A stretch of 34,848 bases of DNA from a virus (lineage: Duplodnaviria > Heunggongvirae > Uroviricota > Caudoviricetes): the IMG/VR virus record IMGVR_UViG_2651869781_000011; one strand, given 5' to 3'. Positions 8,444 through 33,542 of this stretch are shown here, piece by piece. The position numbers were made by a program, and so were the translations under genes. The first letter of the stretch is position 1. The number at the start of each line of letters is the position of its first letter. Below the pieces are notes generated by a model, which was not told where the DNA came from, made no database searches, and saw only the letters and a program-made list of their open reading frames with translations.

Positions 8444-8778
8444 ACATTCCCCTTCTGAGAACAGAGTATCTCAAGCCGGGTGGCACGGGCATCCGGTATC
8501 GGCGGACCGTCTATACTCAGAATCGCGCCTTTGAATGCACCAGTCAGCACTTTCAGACATGAAGTTGCTGTCACATCTCGCCGGAATCTCATCCAGACCC
8601 TCACTGTAGCCTGAGCAGTTTCTGCGCCTCCGGATATTCTCTCCCTGCCACTGATCCCCTTAACTTCTGCCCATATGGTTGCCCCCTCCGTCATTGTTTC
8701 CACAGGGTGCCCTGATGGAGACCGAACGGTGGTGGCATTCAGAATAACCACACGATCACGTAATCTTCCTGCCTGCAT
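8440..8778 (-). CDS. Head-tail adaptor / head closure protein
   Basis: 112 aa; 4-nt overlap with the next gene; position in connector gene set. Confidence 0.55.
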   Translation of the reverse strand: MQAGRLRDRVVILNATTVRSPSGHPVETMTEGATIWAEVKGISGRERISGGAETAQATVRVWMRFRRDVTATSCLKVLTGAFKGAILSIDGPPIPDARATRLEILCSQKGNV

Positions 8779-14865: not shown

Positions 14866-15011
14866 AATCGGTCTTACCTATCAATCGTTTGTTCACATTT
14901 CCAAAAAAGTTTTCGAACCTGCGGCGATGCGAGGAAAGGTCAGGCGGCGGTCCTGAGCAGCCTGGGTTGCAGAGATTTGACCCGCCCCTCCCCCACAGAT
15001 GAGAACAGTTA

Positions 15012-15362
15012 TCAGTTGATGCGTTCGCGCGCTGTTTTTGCTTTATGGCAGGACCAGCACAGACTCTGCAGGTTACTGTCTGCATCCGTGCCACCATGAG
15101 CTTTCGGAATGATGTGGTCCACAGTTCTGGCTTCAACGGCTCTCCCATTGCGCAGGCAGTTCTGACACAGATGATTATCACGCTTCAGTATGCGCGCACG
15201 TATGGTATCCCATTTCGAACCATATCCACGCTGGTGGCGGCTCAGTCCGCGTTGATGCTGTACCCATCCTTCGCCACGATGTGTATCACAGTAACCAGAA
15301 CTGTCTGTGGTTGTATCTGCACATCCACGCTTACGACAGGCGCGTGGGATTCGTGATGGCAT
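15012..15362 (-). CDS. HNH endonuclease (packaging-associated)
   Basis: 116 aa, Cys-rich with ...HIIPKAHGGTDADSNLQSLCWSCH...; sits just upstream of terminase as in HK97-like cos phages. Confidence 0.85.
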   Translation of the reverse strand: MPSRIPRACRKRGCADTTTDSSGYCDTHRGEGWVQHQRGLSRHQRGYGSKWDTIRARILKRDNHLCQNCLRNGRAVEARTVDHIIPKAHGGTDADSNLQSLCWSCHKAKTARERIN

Positions 15363-15382
15363 GGAATTTCGTTCTCCGGCTA

Positions 15383-15679
15383 TTAAAGCGCTTGTCCCTC
15401 GGGGAGGATACAGATCACCCCCAACCCCGCAGCCACGGCGTACTGATTATGTTCATCGACAAGATTTATTGTGCTATCAAGTAACTCACGACAGTGGCTT
15501 ACATTCGTTTCAATGCTCAACACCAGTGAATAAGCACTATTCAACTCCTGACCTGATAAGAACGGAGAATCAGCAGAAACAATTTCCGATTTTATTTTTC
15601 GCAGAGCGCAAAGATTTTCTTCAATGCATTTTCTCAGGACAACGCAACGCCCAATCGCCTCATAGTTTTGCTCAGACAT
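15383..15679 (-). CDS. Hypothetical protein (98 aa)
   Basis: Track ORF begins at a TTG; first ATG at 15679 (MSEQNYEAIG...); no signal peptide; between Rz and HNH. Confidence 0.4.
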   Translation of the reverse strand: MSEQNYEAIGRCVVLRKCIEENLCALRKIKSEIVSADSPFLSGQELNSAYSLVLSIETNVSHCRELLDSTINLVDEHNQYAVAAGLGVICILPEGQAL

Positions 15680-15704
15680 TTCACCCACCTGTTTCAAAAG
15701 TACT

Positions 15705-16169
15705 CTACTTAATGCACTGATCGCGGATATATTCCTGCAATCCCCTGATCATTTTTTCGCTGGTTGCAGCTCGCTCTCTGAGGATGAAATAATCCCGTTG
15801 AGCGGAGTCAGTAAGTCCGGGGCTGGCTGCATCATCCACGCCGGAGGAGGCGGTGGCTTCACGCACGGCTGGACAGACTGCTCTGATGCGCAACCGACGA
15901 CGACCAGCGGCAATATCATCACGCAGAGCATCATTTTCAGCTTTCGCATCAGCTAATTCCTTTGAATATTTTGCATCGAGTGCAGCAACGTCACGCTGGC
16001 GCACCTGCATATCAGTAATGATCGCCTCTGCCAGTTTCAGCTCTCTGGCATTGTCATCGCGTTGTGTTTTGTAGGTAATGGCGTTATCGCGGTAATGCTC
16101 TGTTGCCAGCCACAGAGCACTACAGACCATCAGCAGGACAATAATCACGCCATACAGAATTCGGTTCAT
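15705..16169 (-). CDS. Rz: Rz i-spanin
   Basis: From ATG 16169: MNRILYGVIIVLLMVCSALWLATEHYRDNAITYK...; close to lambda Rz as recalled; N-terminal TM anchor. Confidence 0.85.
   Translation of the reverse strand: MNRILYGVIIVLLMVCSALWLATEHYRDNAITYKTQRDDNARELKLAEAIITDMQVRQRDVAALDAKYSKELADAKAENDALRDDIAAGRRRLRIRAVCPAVREATASSGVDDAASPGLTDSAQRDYFILRERAATSEKMIRGLQEYIRDQCIK
15749..15949 (-). CDS. Rz1: Rz1 o-spanin lipoprotein, embedded in Rz in another frame
   Basis: 66 aa MRKLKMMLCVMILPLVVVGCASEQ...PPPPPAWMMQP...; lipobox VVGC, Pro-rich; fully inside Rz. Confidence 0.8.
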   Translation of the reverse strand: MRKLKMMLCVMILPLVVVGCASEQSVQPCVKPPPPPAWMMQPAPDLLTPLNGIISSSESELQPAKK

Positions 16170-16343
16170 TTCACCACCAGCGTATCTGACCGATGAAATA
16201 ACCGGAGCCCATAACCACAAACACCAGCCAGATAAGGATGAACTTCCAGATGGATAATTTTTCAGCCATCACTCGAATCTCCAGAATCAGTTTGCTAAAA
16301 TCAAACACGTTTTCTCCTTTAGCTTTCCCATGGGCAGAAAACA

Positions 16344-16380
16344 AAACCCCGCTTGCTGCCAACAAACGGGGTTTTTGCTT
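16344..16380. terminator. Bidirectional stem-loop with flanking T/A runs between endolysin and Rz
   Basis: AAACCCCG...CGGGGTTT stem followed by TTTTGCTTTTATT on +, and by a T-run on the minus strand. Confidence 0.35.
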
Positions 16381-16465
16381 TTATTCACTTACCTTTTGCC
16401 AGTTTGCAGAATATCGTGCTATCCGCTTGTGTGAGCAAACGGCATTTTTCAGCAAAATATTCTGC

Positions 16466-16999
16466 TTATCTGTCGATCCCCCAGCACACCAGCGCACTCT
16501 CCTGGTCACGACGAATAACCTGACCGTAACAGTTATTTGAACGAATGCGGCAATCACGGCCACCGTCCTTAATCCACCAGCGAATCGCCTCGCATGCGCC
16601 TTTGCGATCACCGGCATTCAGCCGCTTATAAAACGTCGACGGGAAACACTTACCGGGGCCAATGTTATAGGGACAAAATGACGCAATACCTGCTTTTTGT
16701 GGTTCGGTCAGTGGTACTTTTATATTGCGATCCACCCATGCCAGCGCCTTATCACGTTCAATAGCGTTAACCTGGTCGCATTTTTCCTTCGACAGCTTCA
16801 TTCCCGGTATGACGGGCTTACCATCCACCATTGTGGCACCACGACAGATGGTCCATATGCCAGAACCATCACGGTATGCCGTTGTGTGGTTACCTTCTTT
16901 TTCATCCAGAAACTGGTCAAGTATTTGAGGAGCAGACGCGCCTGCAGCAATCAGCGCCAGAACGGCAGCTGACAGGCCGTATTTGATTTTTGCGTTCAT
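16466..16999 (-). CDS. R: SAR endolysin (T4-lysozyme-like, GH24)
   Basis: 177 aa; N-terminal Ala/Gly-rich signal-anchor-release segment (YGLSAAVLALIAAGASAP); resembles Stx-phage-type endolysins as recalled. Confidence 0.9.
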   Translation of the reverse strand: MNAKIKYGLSAAVLALIAAGASAPQILDQFLDEKEGNHTTAYRDGSGIWTICRGATMVDGKPVIPGMKLSKEKCDQVNAIERDKALAWVDRNIKVPLTEPQKAGIASFCPYNIGPGKCFPSTFYKRLNAGDRKGACEAIRWWIKDGGRDCRIRSNNCYGQVIRRDQESALVCWGIDR

Positions 17000-17062
17000 G
17001 GATATTTATCAGAATTTACCGGTTTCTGCCCATGGACAGGTTTATCTGTTCCGGTCAGTGGC

Positions 17063-17413
17063 TTAAGGTTGCGATTCCGGAGGAGTCTTCAGAGAACAAG
17101 TAATTCTTCCCGGTAGCTTTCCTTTGTAGGTTACCCACACATTCTGCGCCTCAAAAATTATGGGGCGTTTTTCTGGCGACGGCTCATCCCATTCACATAA
17201 CCTGGCAGCAACATCCAGAAATACCTGTCTGATTCTCCTTCTGGCTGCTGCCTCATAAAACTCCAGCGCAGCACCTTCAACACGGTCCATGGTGATGTCC
17301 AGGTCAAAAATTTCACCGTCAAAGCGTTCTTTGTTCCGTAAGGCTAAAGTTACCGCAACTTTATTCTCAAAATTGCGGACTCCCTTAACAACCAGTTCAT
17401 AGTTTTGAGTCAT
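17063..17413 (-). CDS. Hypothetical cytoplasmic protein (116 aa) inserted between holin and endolysin
   Basis: ATG 17413 lies 4 nt after the holin stop with a GGGAGAG SD; no TM segment or signal peptide. Confidence 0.55.
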   Translation of the reverse strand: MTQNYELVVKGVRNFENKVAVTLALRNKERFDGEIFDLDITMDRVEGAALEFYEAAARRRIRQVFLDVAARLCEWDEPSPEKRPIIFEAQNVWVTYKGKLPGRITCSLKTPPESQP

Positions 17414-17417
17414 TAAA

Positions 17418-17633
17418 TTACTCTCCCCGCGCAGCCTTACGCTTGTCTTCTCTGATTTTGAAGTACAGATTTGTCAGATAAGTCAGGAAGCCCAGAACCA
17501 GACTCCCCAGCACACCAATCGCAGCCCACTGTGACGGACTGACCTGATCAAGCCACTGTAAAAACCAGTAGCCAGCACTGCCTGCGGAGGTGCCGTAGGC
17601 AATGCCAGTTGAAATTTTGTCCATGGATTTCAT
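17418..17633 (-). CDS. S: Pinholin (phage 21 S-type holin)
   Basis: 71 aa [27 protein letters not shown]...; near-identical to S21 as recalled; pairs with the SAR endolysin. Confidence 0.85.
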
Positions 17634-17689
17634 AGCCTCACCTCCGCAAATAACGGATGGCGTAGTTTTACACTGAGAGATGAAAGGGA

Positions 17690-17720
17690 TTTGAAAAGAA
17701 AAGCCCGCAAAAGCGGGCGA
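17690..17720 (-). terminator. Hairpin plus T-run between the tRNAs and the holin gene
   Basis: GCCCGC-aaaa-GCGGGC stem; minus strand continues TTTTCTTTTC. Confidence 0.4.
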
Positions 17721-17924
17721 AATTGGATCTACAGTCAGGAAAGCACTCTATCCAACAAACCACCCACAGTTAATCGGAATAAAAGCAGAGTGCTTATGAA
17801 TGATCGCCTGCCCGAAGGTTGTTATTCCTGCACAGCAATTTTGCAAAAAAGACGCTCATTCATAACCCAAACGTCTTTCAGTCACTCCGGGCTTTCCCAT
17901 CATCGCAGACTGAAAGACTCTAAC

Positions 17925-17999
<75 letters not shown>

Positions 18000-18002
18000 A
18001 TA

Positions 18003-18078
<76 letters not shown>

Positions 18079-18268
18079 ATTGGTTCTTCGGGTGTGAATG
18101 AGATGCCCGGATACATAATTTACCCTTCCCTCGGAACCGCAGAGATAATACAAATAAATAACCAGAATTCAATATTTGCTTATTCGTCTGTCGAAAAAAC
18201 CAGCAAGATGAAAGAACCGTATTCGCAACCACCAGCGTGTTTAATGTACCGTACCGCTTTTCGGGCAT

Positions 18269-18296
18269 AAAAAAACCCGCTTGGAGGCGGGCTGTA
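18269..18296 (-). terminator. tR'-like intrinsic terminator downstream of Q
   Basis: CCCGC-ctccaa-GCGGG stem followed by T7 on the minus strand, about 80 nt after the Q stop. Confidence 0.5.
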
Positions 18297-18341
18297 AAAA
18301 TTCTTCTAACGTCAGGCACAAAACGCCCATCGTTAGATGCA

Positions 18342-18369
18342 AATTTACCACAGATTCGGGAAAAATCAA
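18342..18369 (-). promoter_or_regulatory. Candidate late promoter PR' (TTGATT-N16-TAAATT) with presumed Q-utilisation region
   Basis: Sigma70-like hexamers on the minus strand just after the Q stop and before the terminator. Confidence 0.35.
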
Positions 18370-18374
18370 CAACA

Positions 18375-19196
18375 CTATCGCGTTACCCTTTTTAACTGCC
18401 GCTCCGCCCATGCCTCTTCAATGTCAAACCGAACCACCAACGTATCGTAAAAGCGTTTCACTGATTTTTTCCACGTATCAAGCGTGATAGCACTCGTCAC
18501 TTTGCATATGGCATTAAATGCCTCCGTTGATGGCAGTCTTTCATAGCCCCGACCACCACAACGCTGGCAGTTCCTGATTACAGGCATACCCTGTTTTTCC
18601 GACTCTTTACGATGAATGGCAACACCACGCCCACGGCAGTCTTTACAGGCAGTGGAAATCTCCCCCTTCCCTTTACATTCAGGACAGGAAACTTTCACCA
18701 CCTCCCGGATTTTTTTCCATTCTTCCCAGTAAGACGGATACACACCCTTCGTACACTTTGCCCATACTGGCGGCTTGCCATCCGGATACTGAACCTTGTT
18801 TGTAAAAACTTCGCTTTCAATAAATTTTTCCCCATGGCAACAAGGGCACTGCTTTTTACTCGCTGCGCTGCGGGCATAATCCTCAAAAGCATACGAAGCC
18901 ATAATGCGCATCACTGCCGGTTTTATTTCTGCCGGAAGTTTTCTTAACGCCGCCACGCGATCGCACTGACTTAATGCATAATCTGCCAATAATTCTGTTG
19001 CCCGCGCCCTGTCATTCATACTAATGCCCATTTTCCCCAGGAACGCAGAAAATCCCATCTCAGCCCGGTTTTGTGTCATACCCTGCGCAGCCATCACATC
19101 AGTGATACTCAGCGCATCTTTTGACGTCGAGACGGATGCATCAGTCAGGCCAGGCGATTTTGGGGAGTAGTATTTCGGTAAATCTTCCAGCTTCAT
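18375..19196 (-). CDS. Q: Late antiterminator Q (lambda Q family, Zn-binding)
   Basis: 273 aa; shares HSPKSP, DVMAAxGM, Cys clusters and C-terminal ...YDxLVV... with lambda Q as recalled; precedes PR'/tRNAs/lysis genes. Confidence 0.8.
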   Translation of the reverse strand: MKLEDLPKYYSPKSPGLTDASVSTSKDALSITDVMAAQGMTQNRAEMGFSAFLGKMGISMNDRARATELLADYALSQCDRVAALRKLPAEIKPAVMRIMASYAFEDYARSAASKKQCPCCHGEKFIESEVFTNKVQYPDGKPPVWAKCTKGVYPSYWEEWKKIREVVKVSCPECKGKGEISTACKDCRGRGVAIHRKESEKQGMPVIRNCQRCGGRGYERLPSTEAFNAICKVTSAITLDTWKKSVKRFYDTLVVRFDIEEAWAERQLKRVTR

Positions 19197-19573
19197 TTGT
19201 TGGCCTGCCCGTCATGCATTATTTCGTAAATCTTCACGCCCAGTCGCCCACCAGGAACGAGCTGACCGCGCACTATATTGATTTCATCAAACTGCTCATC
19301 GTCGATAAGCAGTCCTGCATGTGTCAGTGCATCCAGTGGTGCCTTCAGGATATTGTCCAGGTCGCGGCGGCGATTATCCGGTGGCTCTGCAATAATCCTG
19401 ATTGCCAACCTACCGGACAGATTTAATTTCAGTCGCTGCTGGCGAACAATAAGCTCCACATCATGGCGATAACGCTCACCAGCTTTTGATACAAAATATG
19501 TACTACCACGACGGCGCCAGTAGGTGTTCACCGTCGGCGGGTAAGGCAAAACAAACTCTATGCATTCTGTCAT
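19193..19573 (-). CDS. rusA: Holliday junction resolvase RusA
   Basis: 126 aa MTECIEFVLPYPPTVNTYWRRRG...; typical RusA N-terminus; nin-region position. Confidence 0.85.
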   Translation of the reverse strand: MTECIEFVLPYPPTVNTYWRRRGSTYFVSKAGERYRHDVELIVRQQRLKLNLSGRLAIRIIAEPPDNRRRDLDNILKAPLDALTHAGLLIDDEQFDEINIVRGQLVPGGRLGVKIYEIMHDGQANK

Positions 19574-20629
19574 TTATGCTTTCCACTTCAGGACGCCCGA
19601 ATTTCTCGCGTGCATTAAAAAACGAATCAGCAACAACAACTGGCTACCGTGTTTGTCTTCAAAATCTTTTACTCCGGCGTGTAGTTCGTTATGGCATTTA
19701 CGACACAGCGGAATAACAAACAAATCATCAGCCTTTGTTCCCATTCCTCCCAGTCCATGACCAATGATGTGATGCGGATCATCTGCCTGATTACCGCACG
19801 TCATGCATTTCTGCGTTTTTACCCAGCGCGTGTATACAGGCATCTCTTCCCGTTGTGGTTTCTGGCGCTGGAGATACTGAGCCGGTGACTCCGGATCAAC
19901 GGCAATGCTGACCACCGTCTTTTCCTGTGGCGGGTTTTGCTGGTGGGCGTGAGGCAGCGGCGCAAGATTTTTTGTGCGCTGCTTCAGTATGCTGGTGGCG
20001 GTCTGCTCTCCCGGTACGATGTCGCTTTCGCGGTACACCGAGCGGATTTTTTCCGCACGCAATCCCAGAGAACGACGTAATACTGCCTCCGGCAATACGT
20101 CCGCTACCTGATTGCAGACCGCCCACCAGGATAATTCAGCCAGCGATAACTCCCGCTCCTGTGTACCGTTTATTGCGTGGCGGATGACGTCAATCATCCA
20201 GGATGTCAGGTTTTGTTGAGCAAGTTGCCCGAGTGATTCTGAAGTCTGGTCGCGTAACTGATTATCACAGTGCCAGCACAATACCATCGCGCCGGTACCG
20301 TAACGATGTATGACGGTTTCACTGTGGTGGTAGTCACCATGAGGCCACTGGCAGGATTTAACATGGCGTAACAGCCAGTCAGACAATGCGCCAGCGCCGC
20401 CAGCAGCACGAATCACCCGCTCATCGCTGAAAAATGGCAGTAATGATTTATCTTCCGCGAGCGGCTGGCGCACGGCAGGAACAGCTCCTGACGGCAGACC
20501 GCGCATGCTTTTCGGTTCCGGCTCCACCAGCACCCGGGGATTATGAAATGCCTGCATGGATTCACGGCCCGGCTTAAGGACCACCAGCCCGAGTTCCGGT
20601 ACCAGAACAGGTCGAAGTAATACCCGCAC
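19574..20629 (-). CDS. DUF968 / YdfU-like protein with C-terminal HNH-like Cys/His motif
   Basis: 351 aa, GTG start; C-terminus CMTCGNQADDPHHIIGHG...CRKCHNELH; same position as ydfU in Qin (recall). Confidence 0.55.
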   Translation of the reverse strand: MRVLLRPVLVPELGLVVLKPGRESMQAFHNPRVLVEPEPKSMRGLPSGAVPAVRQPLAEDKSLLPFFSDERVIRAAGGAGALSDWLLRHVKSCQWPHGDYHHSETVIHRYGTGAMVLCWHCDNQLRDQTSESLGQLAQQNLTSWMIDVIRHAINGTQERELSLAELSWWAVCNQVADVLPEAVLRRSLGLRAEKIRSVYRESDIVPGEQTATSILKQRTKNLAPLPHAHQQNPPQEKTVVSIAVDPESPAQYLQRQKPQREEMPVYTRWVKTQKCMTCGNQADDPHHIIGHGLGGMGTKADDLFVIPLCRKCHNELHAGVKDFEDKHGSQLLLLIRFLMHARNSGVLKWKA

Positions 20630-31061: not shown

Positions 31062-33542
31062 ATGAGTAAAGTCTTTATTTGCGCCGCCATTCCGGACGAA
31101 CAGGCAACAGCAGAAGGCGCCAAACCTGTGGCCACTGCCATTGAAGCAGGCGACGAACGCCGGGCAAGAGCCAAATTTAGCTGGTTATTTCTGGAACAAT
31201 ACCCGGAAGCTCAGGACTGTGCTTATAAATTTCTTGTCTGCGAGGATAAACCCGGCATGGCCCGCCCTGCTCTCGATTCCTGGGATTCCGAATATATGCA
31301 GGAAAACCGCTGGAATGAGGAGTCGGCTTCCTTTGTTCCGGTCGACCCTGAACCGGACGCAGAAATTGTTAACTTTAATCAGTTATCTGACGACAAGCGG
31401 GCTGCTGTCCTTGTCAGGTTCGGTACACATGAAAACATCACCGTGGATATGGTCATCAATGCAAGCGGGCTTCTCGGCGATGACGAGATGACGACTTTTG
31501 ATGGACACCTCGCTGAAGCAATTATCCGGACCAGAGAAATTAACGCCATGTATCCAGAGCGTCAGATTGAGTACATCAACGATGCCAGACGTGATTTAAA
31601 ACCAACAGCCAAATGGCCCGACGTTCAGGCGTATTTTCTCGAACGTAAAAAACGCATGGAAAAGGAGCGCAAAGAAGGTGGCGCATATAATTCCGTCGTC
31701 GATCTTGCCCGCGCCAGAGTCAACCGGCAAGGCACTGAAAACTCTGCAGGAAAAACTGACTCCGTAACTGCTGTCATTCGTCGCGAATACAGGCAGACAT
31801 GGAAAACACTGGATGAAGAACTGGCCTACGCTTTCTGGCCTGGTGATATTGATGCCGGAAACATTGACGGCAGCATCCATCGCTGGGCAAAAAATGAAGT
31901 TATCGACAAAGATCGCGAAGACTGGAAGCGTATTTCCGCATCAATGCGCAAACAACCTGATGCCGTTCGCTACGACCGTCAGACTATTTTTGGCCTTGTC
32001 CGTGAGCGTCCGATCGACATTCACAAAGATCCCGTGGCGCTGAACAAATACATCACTGAATACCTGGCGACAAAGGGCGTGTTTGAGGATGAAGAAACAG
32101 ACCAGAGCACTGCTGATATTCTCCAGCCGTCAGCAGCACAAACTGATGCAGTGGAAACTGAAGTATCTGATACCCAAAAAAATGAAAGCGCGCTGGAAAC
32201 TGAACCATCTGTAGAGCGTGAGGGGCCGTTCTACTTCCTCTTCACCGATAAGGATGGCGAAAAATATGGTCGTGCAAACAAACTTTCTGGTCTGAATAAG
32301 GCGCTGGCTGCCGGGGCTACTGAAATCACGAAAGAAGAATATTTTGCCCGTAAAAACGGCACGTACTCAGGTTCACAACAAAATACTGGTGCATCTGACA
32401 CGACCGCACAACCAGAGCCGGTAAAAGTTACCGCTGACGAAGTAAACAAAATTATGCAGGCAGCCAATATCAGCCAGCCTGACGCCGATAAGTTGCTTGC
32501 TGCCTCTCGCGGAGAATTTGTTGCAGGGATTAGCGACCCGAATGATCCGAAATGGGTGAAGGGGATTGAAACCCGCGATTCTGTAAACCAGAACCAGCAA
32601 GAATCGGAACAGAACGACCAGAAAGCGGAACAAAACAGCCAAAATGCGTTACAAAACGAGCCAGAAACGAAACAACCTGAGGCAGTAGCGCAACAGGAAC
32701 CGGAAAAAGTCTGCACCGCCTGCGGTCAGAGCGGTGGCGGCAACTGCCCTGATTGTGGCGCGGTGATGGGCGACGCAACATACCAGGAAACATTCGATGA
32801 AGAGAATCAGGTTGAAGTTCAGGAAAATGATCCGGAGGAAATGGAAGGCGCTGAACATCCACACAAGGAGAATGCTGGCAGCGCTCAGGACCACGCCAGC
32901 GATAATGAAACTGGTGAGACGGCAGATCCCTTAATTGTGGTGAACGGTCATCACGTTATCACATCCACCAGCAGAGTGTGGTACCACCTGATGATCGACC
33001 TTGAAACAATGGGAACCAACACCAATGCGCCCATCGTGGTTATTGGTGCGGTTTTCTTCGACCCACAAACAGGGGAAATCGGGCCAGTATTTTATATCGT
33101 TATCAGTCTGACTGACGCAATGAATACAGGGGCTGCTCCTGACGGTGGAACCATCAAATGGTGGCTGAAGCAGTCCAGTGAAGCCAGAGCTGCCATTTTA
33201 ACAGACCAGGTAAAACTGAAGGATGCCCTTTCGCGGTTTCGGGAGTTCATCAACGAATACTCAGATGAAAAATTCGTTCAGGTATGGGGTAATGGTGCAA
33301 CTTTCGATAACGCAATTTTGCGCACCTCATACGAACGTCTGGACATCCCCTGCCCGTGGCGCTACCACAACGATCGCGATGTACGCACAATCGTTGAGCT
33401 GGGAAAAACAATCGACTTTGATGCTAGAACCGTTATTCCATTCGAAGGCGTTCGCCACAATGCACTGGATGACGCCCGTCACCAGGCAAAATACGTTTCA
33501 GCAATCTGGCAAAAACTGATCCCGAATCCGGTTGATTTTTAA
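31062..33542 (+). CDS. RecE-like large protein with C-terminal DEDDh 3'-5' exonuclease domain
   Basis: 826 aa; GAGG SD; C-terminal motifs MIDLETMG, WGNGATFDNAIL, HNALDDARH; central ...KLLAASRGEFVAGISDPNDPKWVKG... recalls RecE; Cys cluster CTACGQSGGGNCPDCG. Confidence 0.8.
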   Translation: MSKVFICAAIPDEQATAEGAKPVATAIEAGDERRARAKFSWLFLEQYPEAQDCAYKFLVCEDKPGMARPALDSWDSEYMQENRWNEESASFVPVDPEPDAEIVNFNQLSDDKRAAVLVRFGTHENITVDMVINASGLLGDDEMTTFDGHLAEAIIRTREINAMYPERQIEYINDARRDLKPTAKWPDVQAYFLERKKRMEKERKEGGAYNSVVDLARARVNRQGTENSAGKTDSVTAVIRREYRQTWKTLDEELAYAFWPGDIDAGNIDGSIHRWAKNEVIDKDREDWKRISASMRKQPDAVRYDRQTIFGLVRERPIDIHKDPVALNKYITEYLATKGVFEDEETDQSTADILQPSAAQTDAVETEVSDTQKNESALETEPSVEREGPFYFLFTDKDGEKYGRANKLSGLNKALAAGATEITKEEYFARKNGTYSGSQQNTGASDTTAQPEPVKVTADEVNKIMQAANISQPDADKLLAASRGEFVAGISDPNDPKWVKGIETRDSVNQNQQESEQNDQKAEQNSQNALQNEPETKQPEAVAQQEPEKVCTACGQSGGGNCPDCGAVMGDATYQETFDEENQVEVQENDPEEMEGAEHPHKENAGSAQDHASDNETGETADPLIVVNGHHVITSTSRVWYHLMIDLETMGTNTNAPIVVIGAVFFDPQTGEIGPVFYIVISLTDAMNTGAAPDGGTIKWWLKQSSEARAAILTDQVKLKDALSRFREFINEYSDEKFVQVWGNGATFDNAILRTSYERLDIPCPWRYHNDRDVRTIVELGKTIDFDARTVIPFEGVRHNALDDARHQAKYVSAIWQKLIPNPVDF

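Follow-up and report, generated by a model that had tools for sequence, protein, structure and literature searches.

The 116-aa open reading frame between the pinholin and endolysin genes of the prophage analyzed here is, judged from its sequence, near certainly a member of the YdfR/DUF1327 family, and its presence in a lysis cassette is ordinary. In Escherichia and Shigella lambdoid prophages, the site flanked by an S21-type holin and an RrrQ/933W-type endolysin has YdfR as its usual, optional occupant, and Pfam, RefSeq, and the annotation of E. coli K-12 already record the gene, the name of its family, and its place in the lysis cassette. The explanation that we favor is that YdfR would be a dispensable, late cytoplasmic accessory protein outside the holin–endolysin machinery and would act on host RNA metabolism. 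The parts of this explanation concerning identity and expression are near certain; taken as a whole, and including a mechanism that dominates the judgment, it falls somewhat short of probable.

The window, by which we mean the whole stretch of 34,848 nucleotides, is an HK97-like lambdoid prophage whose late genes are on the minus strand. Besides the lysis cassette and tRNAs, it encodes an integrase, Q, HNH, TerS/TerL, a capsid protein, and a tape-measure protein. The features of the locus, listed along the minus strand, are:

18375-19196, minus strand: Q antiterminator, 273 aa, with an Antiterm domain (PF03589) and a DnaJ-type CXXCXGXG zinc-finger region
18003-18078, minus strand: tRNA-Thr(tgt), between Q and the holin
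17925-17999, minus strand: tRNA-Gly(tcc), between Q and the holin
17418-17633, minus strand: S21-type class II holin (pinholin), 71 aa (PF04971, E 1.4e-35), with a Met1/Met4 dual start for antiholin and holin forms
17421-17428, minus strand: Shine–Dalgarno sequence GGGGAGAG for ydfR, inside the last codons of the holin, read from the sequence
17418-17420, minus strand: holin stop codon TAA
17414-17417, minus strand: 4-nt spacer TTTA
17411-17413, minus strand: ATG of ydfR
17063-17413, minus strand: ydfR open reading frame, 116 aa, DUF1327 (PF07041)
17192-17413, minus strand: conserved DUF1327 core, ydfR codons 1-74, a predicted soluble beta-beta-beta-alpha domain (PF07041; AF2)
17063-17191, minus strand: variable C-terminal module SPEKRPIIFEAQNVWVTYKGKLPGRITCSLKTPPESQP, ydfR codons 75-116 and stop, delimited from alignments
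17000-17062, minus strand: ydfR–endolysin spacer, 63 nt
16466-16999, minus strand: endolysin (phage lysozyme) of the RrrQ/933W-R type, 177 aa (PF00959, E 1.2e-24)
15705-16220, minus strand: Rz i-spanin (PF03245, E 7.6e-46), its true start likely being an internal ATG at about 16172
15749-15949, minus strand: Rz1 o-spanin open reading frame embedded in Rz, 66 aa, with a lipobox-like LVVVGC

The open reading frame scored 139.8 bits with the Pfam DUF1327 profile, whose cut-off is 25 (E 3.4e-41), in a match that spans positions 1-92 of the 93 in the profile, and it matched five PHROGs, each of them labeled "unknown function." The databases contain a protein of 100% identity, called "YdfR family protein," on 224 contigs; the DNA has an identical copy in E. 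coli strain AMSHJX01, and the RefSeq protein is WP_052931675.1. In pairwise comparison with homologs, codons 1-74 gave dN/dS values of 0.21-0.41 and the tail gave 0.28-0.61, which shows purifying selection on the coding sequence. Given the Pfam match, the identical database copies, and the dN/dS of 0.21-0.41, the reading frame is a real gene and not a chance one. The maximum Kyte–Doolittle mean over 19 residues was 0.78 in YdfR versus 1.72 in the holin, the pI of the whole protein is 6.3 and that of its mildly acidic N-terminal domain 5.5, and a hydropathy scan found no membrane segment or signal-like N terminus. The original prediction of a real and soluble protein was thus borne out.

The same is true of the junction that it described. 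Read on the minus strand this runs ...GCGCGGGGAGAG TAA TTTA ATG ACT, with the gene starting 4 nt after the holin stop and having a Shine–Dalgarno sequence of its own within the holin gene. The holin is 98.6% identical to S21 of phage 21 and keeps the MKSM dual start, the Met1 and Met4 products being annotated in the phage 21 record as the S21-71 antipinholin and the S21-68 pinholin. Downstream, the endolysin is 92% identical to R of VT2-Sakai and 93% to RrrQ of K-12, and just 34% to R21; its N terminus contains an Ala/Gly-rich hydrophobic segment (aa 9-27, KD 1.78) that would fit a putative SAR or signal-anchor domain. Of five ydfR-bearing cassettes compared, four (the window, L009, L011, and L026) have the AU-rich CTGATAAATATCC as the final 13 nt before the endolysin ATG (17000-17012, minus strand, in the window), and K-12 has CATCATAAATATCT there. 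In none of the five does a Shine–Dalgarno sequence precede this ATG, and the predicted RNA fold of the ydfR–R spacer of the window showed no significant structure (z -1.17). Possible routes to translation of R in ydfR-bearing cassettes are S1-dependent initiation and re-initiation after ydfR.

A scan of the S–ydfR interval gave no promoter-like site, and the interval from ydfR to R has no terminator on the sense strand. During normal growth of K-12, RNA-seq picks up hardly any ydfR reads (PMC13232886). With the 4-nt gap, the missing promoter, and this near silence, the anatomy of the locus indicates that ydfR is read from the Q-dependent late transcript, translated via the holin-embedded Shine–Dalgarno sequence, and made with the holin in the late phase only, in agreement with the late, holin-coupled expression originally predicted. 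The base composition of ydfR is 45.9% GC (GC3 42.7%) versus 50.9% in each neighbor. In the classical definition, a moron is inserted between phage genes and forms a transcription unit of its own. Tested against this, ydfR lacks a flanking promoter and terminator of its own, and it does show the presence and absence between collinear genes, the deviant GC content, and the differing slots; having no promoter or terminator, it is therefore moron-like in distribution and not in transcriptional autonomy.

The occurrence of the gene in Escherichia shows how common the arrangement is. The Qin prophage of K-12 has the order essQ-ydfR-rrrQ with an identical 4-nt junction, and the order S-ydfR-R and the same junction are found in BP-4795 (ORF47), phage Evi, mEp460 (gp55), and vB_EcoS-689R5. 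The placement of ydfR was the same in 15 of 15 Escherichia/Shigella-type loci compared, a set that includes two MAG contigs labeled Veillonella and Bacillota: in each, the stop of an S21-type holin is followed after 4 nt by the start of DUF1327, and an RrrQ-type lysozyme (92-98% identical) lies downstream at a variable distance. Across 5426 complete E. coli genomes, ydfR-like DNA is present in 4349 (~80%), at 8614 places and up to 10 per genome, and the S-ydfR-R stretch matches 4910, with 2562 of them matching over at least 80% of its length. In phage records, 438 match the S21-type holin and 101, or about a quarter, match the 116-aa protein; the DUF1327-bearing records include BP-4795, mEp460, H-19B, and many Stx1a and Stx2c phages, the H-19B and Stx1a/Stx2c cases being a protein match alone to an open reading frame that is unannotated in those records. 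The gene is missing at the same junction from phage 21 and VT2-Sakai, where the holin or endolysin is near-identical. In VT2-Sakai it is R that starts 4 nt after S, served by the same holin-embedded GGGGAGAG, and the junction with its embedded Shine–Dalgarno sequence has the same architecture in K-12, BP-4795, and VT2-Sakai.

These counts alter the original prediction in two respects. Its starting point, that the two lysis genes normally lie side by side, describes phage 21 and VT2-Sakai but not the quarter of holin-type phage records that carry ydfR, and its view of the gene as an unusual insertion has to be given up for a named family that occupies the same slot in K-12 Qin, BP-4795, mEp460, Evi, and 689R5. 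The family comes halfway to being a well-characterized housekeeping family always found in this slot, the finding that the prediction had named as speaking against it: it is well known and very common there, but it is not well characterized and is missing from phage 21 and the Stx2a phages.

Comparison with the closest known relatives separates a constant from a variable part of the protein. K-12 YdfR (b1555, P76160) belongs to the same Pfam family, occupies the same slot after an S21-type holin with the same 4-nt junction, is 82% identical in its N-terminal 74 residues, and is followed by a lysozyme of the same type. It differs in being 103 aa long, in its unrelated helical tail, and in overlapping rrrQ by 4 nt, whereas the window protein has 116 aa, a SPEKRP...KGKLPGRIT tail, and a 63-nt gap before the endolysin. 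The "putative YdfR family protein" of 689R5 matches that of the window in its 116-aa architecture and in the 63-nt spacer that follows its gene. BP-4795 ORF47, mEp460 gp55, and the 689R5 protein share the gene order and junction of the window; among the phage homologs, whole-protein identity is 50-88%, and the mEp460 tail differs. Phage Evi has the 72-aa core alone, followed by a convergent open reading frame. Alleles are also reshuffled, the holins of the window and 689R5 being 100% identical and their YdfR N-terminal domains 88% identical.

The AF2 model of the core, computed with remote homologs in the alignment, has a pLDDT of 90.5 and consists of antiparallel strands at residues 5-14, 18-27, and 34-43 and a long helix at residues 50-73. 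At the start of the helix lies the signature EGxxLEFYE (EG-x-x-L-E-F-Y-E-x-x-A); the columns E46, G47, A48, L50, E51, F52, Y53, E54, and A57 are invariant in our alignment (A1), and Y53 and E54, the YE motif, are still invariant once members at ~25% identity join the alignment. For the window tail, AF2 confidence is below 50. After residue 74, the DUF1327 family has at least five alternative continuations:

SPEKRP...KGKLPGRIT module: the window protein, 116 aa
the window module plus a coiled-coil extension of 60-70 residues: proteins of 176 or 183 aa (P0015/P0032)
an unrelated 30-residue tail: mEp460
the helical tail of K-12, alone or extended further: proteins of 103 or 206 aa
no tail: phage Evi, 72 aa

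The conserved unit of the family is thus the 74-residue core, and the tail is exchangeable. The C-terminal module of the window is also present without the DUF1327 N-terminal domain, in a 112-aa protein (P0153). The module EKRPIILEAQ.VWITYKGKLPGRITGSLKTPP and the coiled-coil module occur in varying order, also without the core (P0153, 112 aa; P0015/P0032, 176/183 aa; P0127, 287 aa). The varying order and the occurrence of a module without the core indicate domain shuffling within the S-R junction.

A one-genome-per-species scan found the gene confined to Escherichia and Shigella, plus two contigs in MAGs labeled Veillonella and Bacillota, which in our view are Escherichia sequence that was mis-binned. 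Searching 1.84 billion representative proteins with a profile returned just 89 DUF1327 members; by this measure, the core is conserved across Enterobacterales and down to ~25% identity in other genera, and family members are found also in Yersinia bercovieri and Cronobacter (P0215, P0207). The genes in other genera are stand-alone DUF1327 genes of 72-94 aa, plus one tandem two-domain protein of 176 aa, and their surroundings vary. The gene adjoins the tail gene L in Sodalis ligni, lies between tail genes L and K in metagenomic prophage contigs, and comes just after tail gene I in Yersinia-type contigs, where it precedes J in the sole contig long enough to tell. The tandem two-domain gene has Q on one side and a holin from a different family on the other, and another DUF1327 gene lies upstream of terminase. 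Its occurrence in tail, pre-holin, and pre-terminase slots makes DUF1327 a mobile accessory gene of late operons that is not intrinsically tied to holin and endolysin.

Directly after many DUF1327 genes, including those of phage Evi and of E. coli and E. ruysiae loci, we observed a convergent open reading frame of ~75-100 aa that appears helix-rich by eye:

locus L018: 942-1232, minus strand
locus L020: 1879-2160, minus strand
locus L021: 4282-4506, minus strand
locus L022: 4560-4811, minus strand
locus L010: 2744-3040, minus strand
locus L001: 4500-4766, minus strand
locus L002: 4311-4589, minus strand

The partners in L018 and L020 are homologous (33% identity, about 1e-12) despite their different prophage positions. 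A single conserved partner family, and with it a general two-gene system, was not supported, as all other pairs had E > 0.02. The convergent frames had no Pfam or PADLOC match and no homolog in the window, which has no frame of this kind after its ydfR. For some family members, DUF1327 and the convergent frame could make up a mobile pair of genes.

The homology and structure searches, which the original prediction had proposed as a check, identified the family and no relative that points to a function. Searching the PDB by sequence with the protein and a 27-member profile gave chance-level matches only (CENP-P, E 0.65; eL18, E 0.23), Foldseek against the BFVD viral structures returned nothing at E <= 1e-3, NCBIfam and PADLOC had no match for the window YdfR, and no lysis-category family in Pfam, PHROGs, or NCBIfam matched it. 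A double-stranded RNA-binding domain, looked for as an alpha-beta-beta-beta-alpha fold together with a dsrm profile match, was rejected, this combination not being found. In the literature, DUF1327 has a passing mention in one paper, a 2024 y-ome survey lists YdfR as uncharacterized (PMC11551758), and a single substantive study deals with ydfR (PMC13232886).

That study (Göpel et al., RNA Biol 2026; PMC13232886) recovered K-12 YdfR from a bacterial two-hybrid screen as interacting with RNase E (Rne 1-597) and found residues 1-72 of YdfR to suffice for the two-hybrid interaction. Rne 1-598 co-eluted with Strep-YdfR from lysates, either directly or by way of RNA, and the Strep-YdfR eluate contained DNase-resistant nucleic acid (PMC13232886). 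With 82% identity to K-12 YdfR over residues 1-74, the window protein most likely shares this RNase E/RNA property. YdfR would then bind RNA, the catalytic N-terminal half of RNase E, or both, and a possible outcome would be an altered stability of phage late or host transcripts. We hold this mechanism, that of a dispensable late accessory protein acting on RNase E and/or RNA, as a tentative first choice. Against it, the link comes from one study of an orthologue, by two-hybrid and lysate co-purification, over-production of K-12 YdfR alters few transcripts and leaves growth unaffected (PMC13232886), and the C-terminal module of the window is unlike the K-12 tail. The position of the gene in Escherichia, always joined to an S21-type holin by an invariant junction, is moreover what a lysis-linked function predicts.

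Small phage proteins that contact RNase E include T4 Srd, T7 gp0.7, and phiKZ Dip. The comparison with YdfR is of the "works like" kind, its YdfR side being the K-12 two-hybrid and co-purification results. In a more specific form of the proposal, YdfR would do in temperate phages what T4 Srd or phiKZ Dip does in its own phage: coupled to the holin and made late, it would bind the catalytic half of RNase E (and RNA) with its core and reprogram the decay of the long late transcript or of host mRNA in the minutes before lysis, the tails setting different specificities; in this detailed form we think it rather unlikely.

The original prediction had, with good reason, left the choice between a lysis regulator and a late-expressed moron open, and the evidence leans to the accessory, moron-like side. 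As a regulator of lysis timing, YdfR would be made stoichiometrically with the pinholin and would modulate holin triggering or the release of the SAR endolysin, for example by binding the basic tail of S21 or delaying membrane depolarization. Such a role is in keeping with the location of ydfR within the lysis cassette, with the junction of Shine–Dalgarno sequence plus 4 nt that is invariant with the S21-type holin in the 15 loci, and with the contrast between a mildly acidic N-terminal domain and a basic, cytoplasmic C-terminal holin tail. It is weakened by a protein that has no membrane segment or signal peptide and matches no lysis-category PHROG or Pfam family, by a holin that retains its own antiholin dual start, by phage 21 and the Stx2a phages lysing without ydfR, by distant members lying in tail clusters or before an unrelated holin family, and by the reshuffling of holin and YdfR alleles between the window and 689R5. 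Known lysis regulators and cassette inserts include T4 RI/RIII, P1 LydB, and P2 LysA/LysC. Along with the S21-71 antiholin and the ant gene that Stx phages have between R and Rz, these resemble YdfR in lying in or near the lysis cassette and being late; YdfR differs in having no homology to them and no membrane or periplasmic targeting, and in having family members outside lysis cassettes. All considered, we regard a timing function as unlikely.

Another explanation gives the weight to the DNA and a secondary part to the protein. By taking the strong Shine–Dalgarno sequence at the end of S, ydfR would place the endolysin 63 nt downstream behind an AU-rich leader lacking such a sequence, and thereby lower or delay synthesis of a SAR endolysin that could be dangerous. 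The use of GGGGAGAG by Sakai R 4 nt after S, next to the CTGATAAATATCC or CATCATAAATATCT leaders of the ydfR-bearing cassettes, is consistent with such an effect. However, the coding sequence is under purifying selection and the N-terminal domain is kept across Enterobacterales in very different contexts, so a mere spacer role is not the whole story; in K-12, moreover, the 4-nt overlap of ydfR with rrrQ could restore translation of R by coupling. As a full account of the gene, a translational spacer seems to us improbable.

An equally improbable reading has ydfR expressed from the resident prophage and helping the host, as a lysogenic-conversion or defense moron acting through superinfection exclusion, stress tolerance, or envelope integrity. 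The gene has a GC content below that of its neighbors and is mobile among moron-type slots, its over-expression raised the streptomycin MIC threefold in a screen (PMC12924614), and the Keio delta-ydfR strain scored as a primary hit in a CPRG envelope-leakage screen (PMC3879167 supplement). In the latter, however, delta-ydfR was one of hundreds and empty wells scored similarly (PMC3879167 supplement); we set aside this weak primary-screen hit as a sign of an envelope role, and the phenotype may come from polarity of the kan cassette on the downstream lysozyme gene rrrQ. A conversion or defense role also sits poorly with a gene 4 nt from the holin that departs from the classical moron definition, is essentially silent in K-12 in normal growth, and has no PADLOC match. 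Finally, a functionless, decaying remnant hitch-hiking with the lysis module, as the many truncated, frameshifted, and fused database variants, the widely varying tails, and the many viable phages without ydfR might suggest, is very improbable for a gene whose N-terminal domain is under purifying selection, folds confidently in AF2, and is conserved in other genera, where its YE motif stays invariant down to ~25% identity; phages that form plaques or can be induced, mEp460 and BP-4795 among them, have also kept the gene.

The question has some reach, as YdfR/DUF1327 is among the commonest E. coli prophage genes. A core with exchangeable tails, movement between late slots, and a Shine–Dalgarno-coupled position that the endolysin holds in Stx2a phages give a frame for a direct test, and with the RNase E data of 2026 the choice between an RNA-decay modulator and a lysis-timing factor becomes testable in Shiga-toxin and other lambdoid phages. 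If the RNase E reading is true, YdfR would be a widespread and overlooked RNase E modulator.

A number of smaller observations concern the window itself. At four positions of alignment A1 that are well conserved in other members, its YdfR allele has a residue other than the consensus (G71R, G75W, L87F, and G106C). An antisense terminator-like hairpin lies within the tail-coding region of ydfR (17146-17168, plus strand) and is probably due to chance, five such sites being found in the region versus 3.7 expected. On the sense strand there are three terminator-like hairpins (17703-17718, 18274-18293, and 16343-16375, all minus strand), of which one directly after Q is a candidate tR', one lies between the tRNAs and the holin, and one is a 15-bp stem in the gap of ~290 nt between endolysin and Rz. 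The early region encodes an 826-aa protein (31062-33542, plus strand) with a large unannotated N-terminal part and a C-terminal Rv2179c-like 3'-5' exoribonuclease/RNase T domain. The Q of the window is of another type than that of phage 21. An Rfam scan over 15000-20000 gave the two tRNAs and nothing else; the corresponding site holds tRNA-Asn and tRNA-Thr in phage 21 and three or four tRNAs in related prophages. H-19B and many Stx phages have an R-Rz spacer with 89-90% identity to that of the window.
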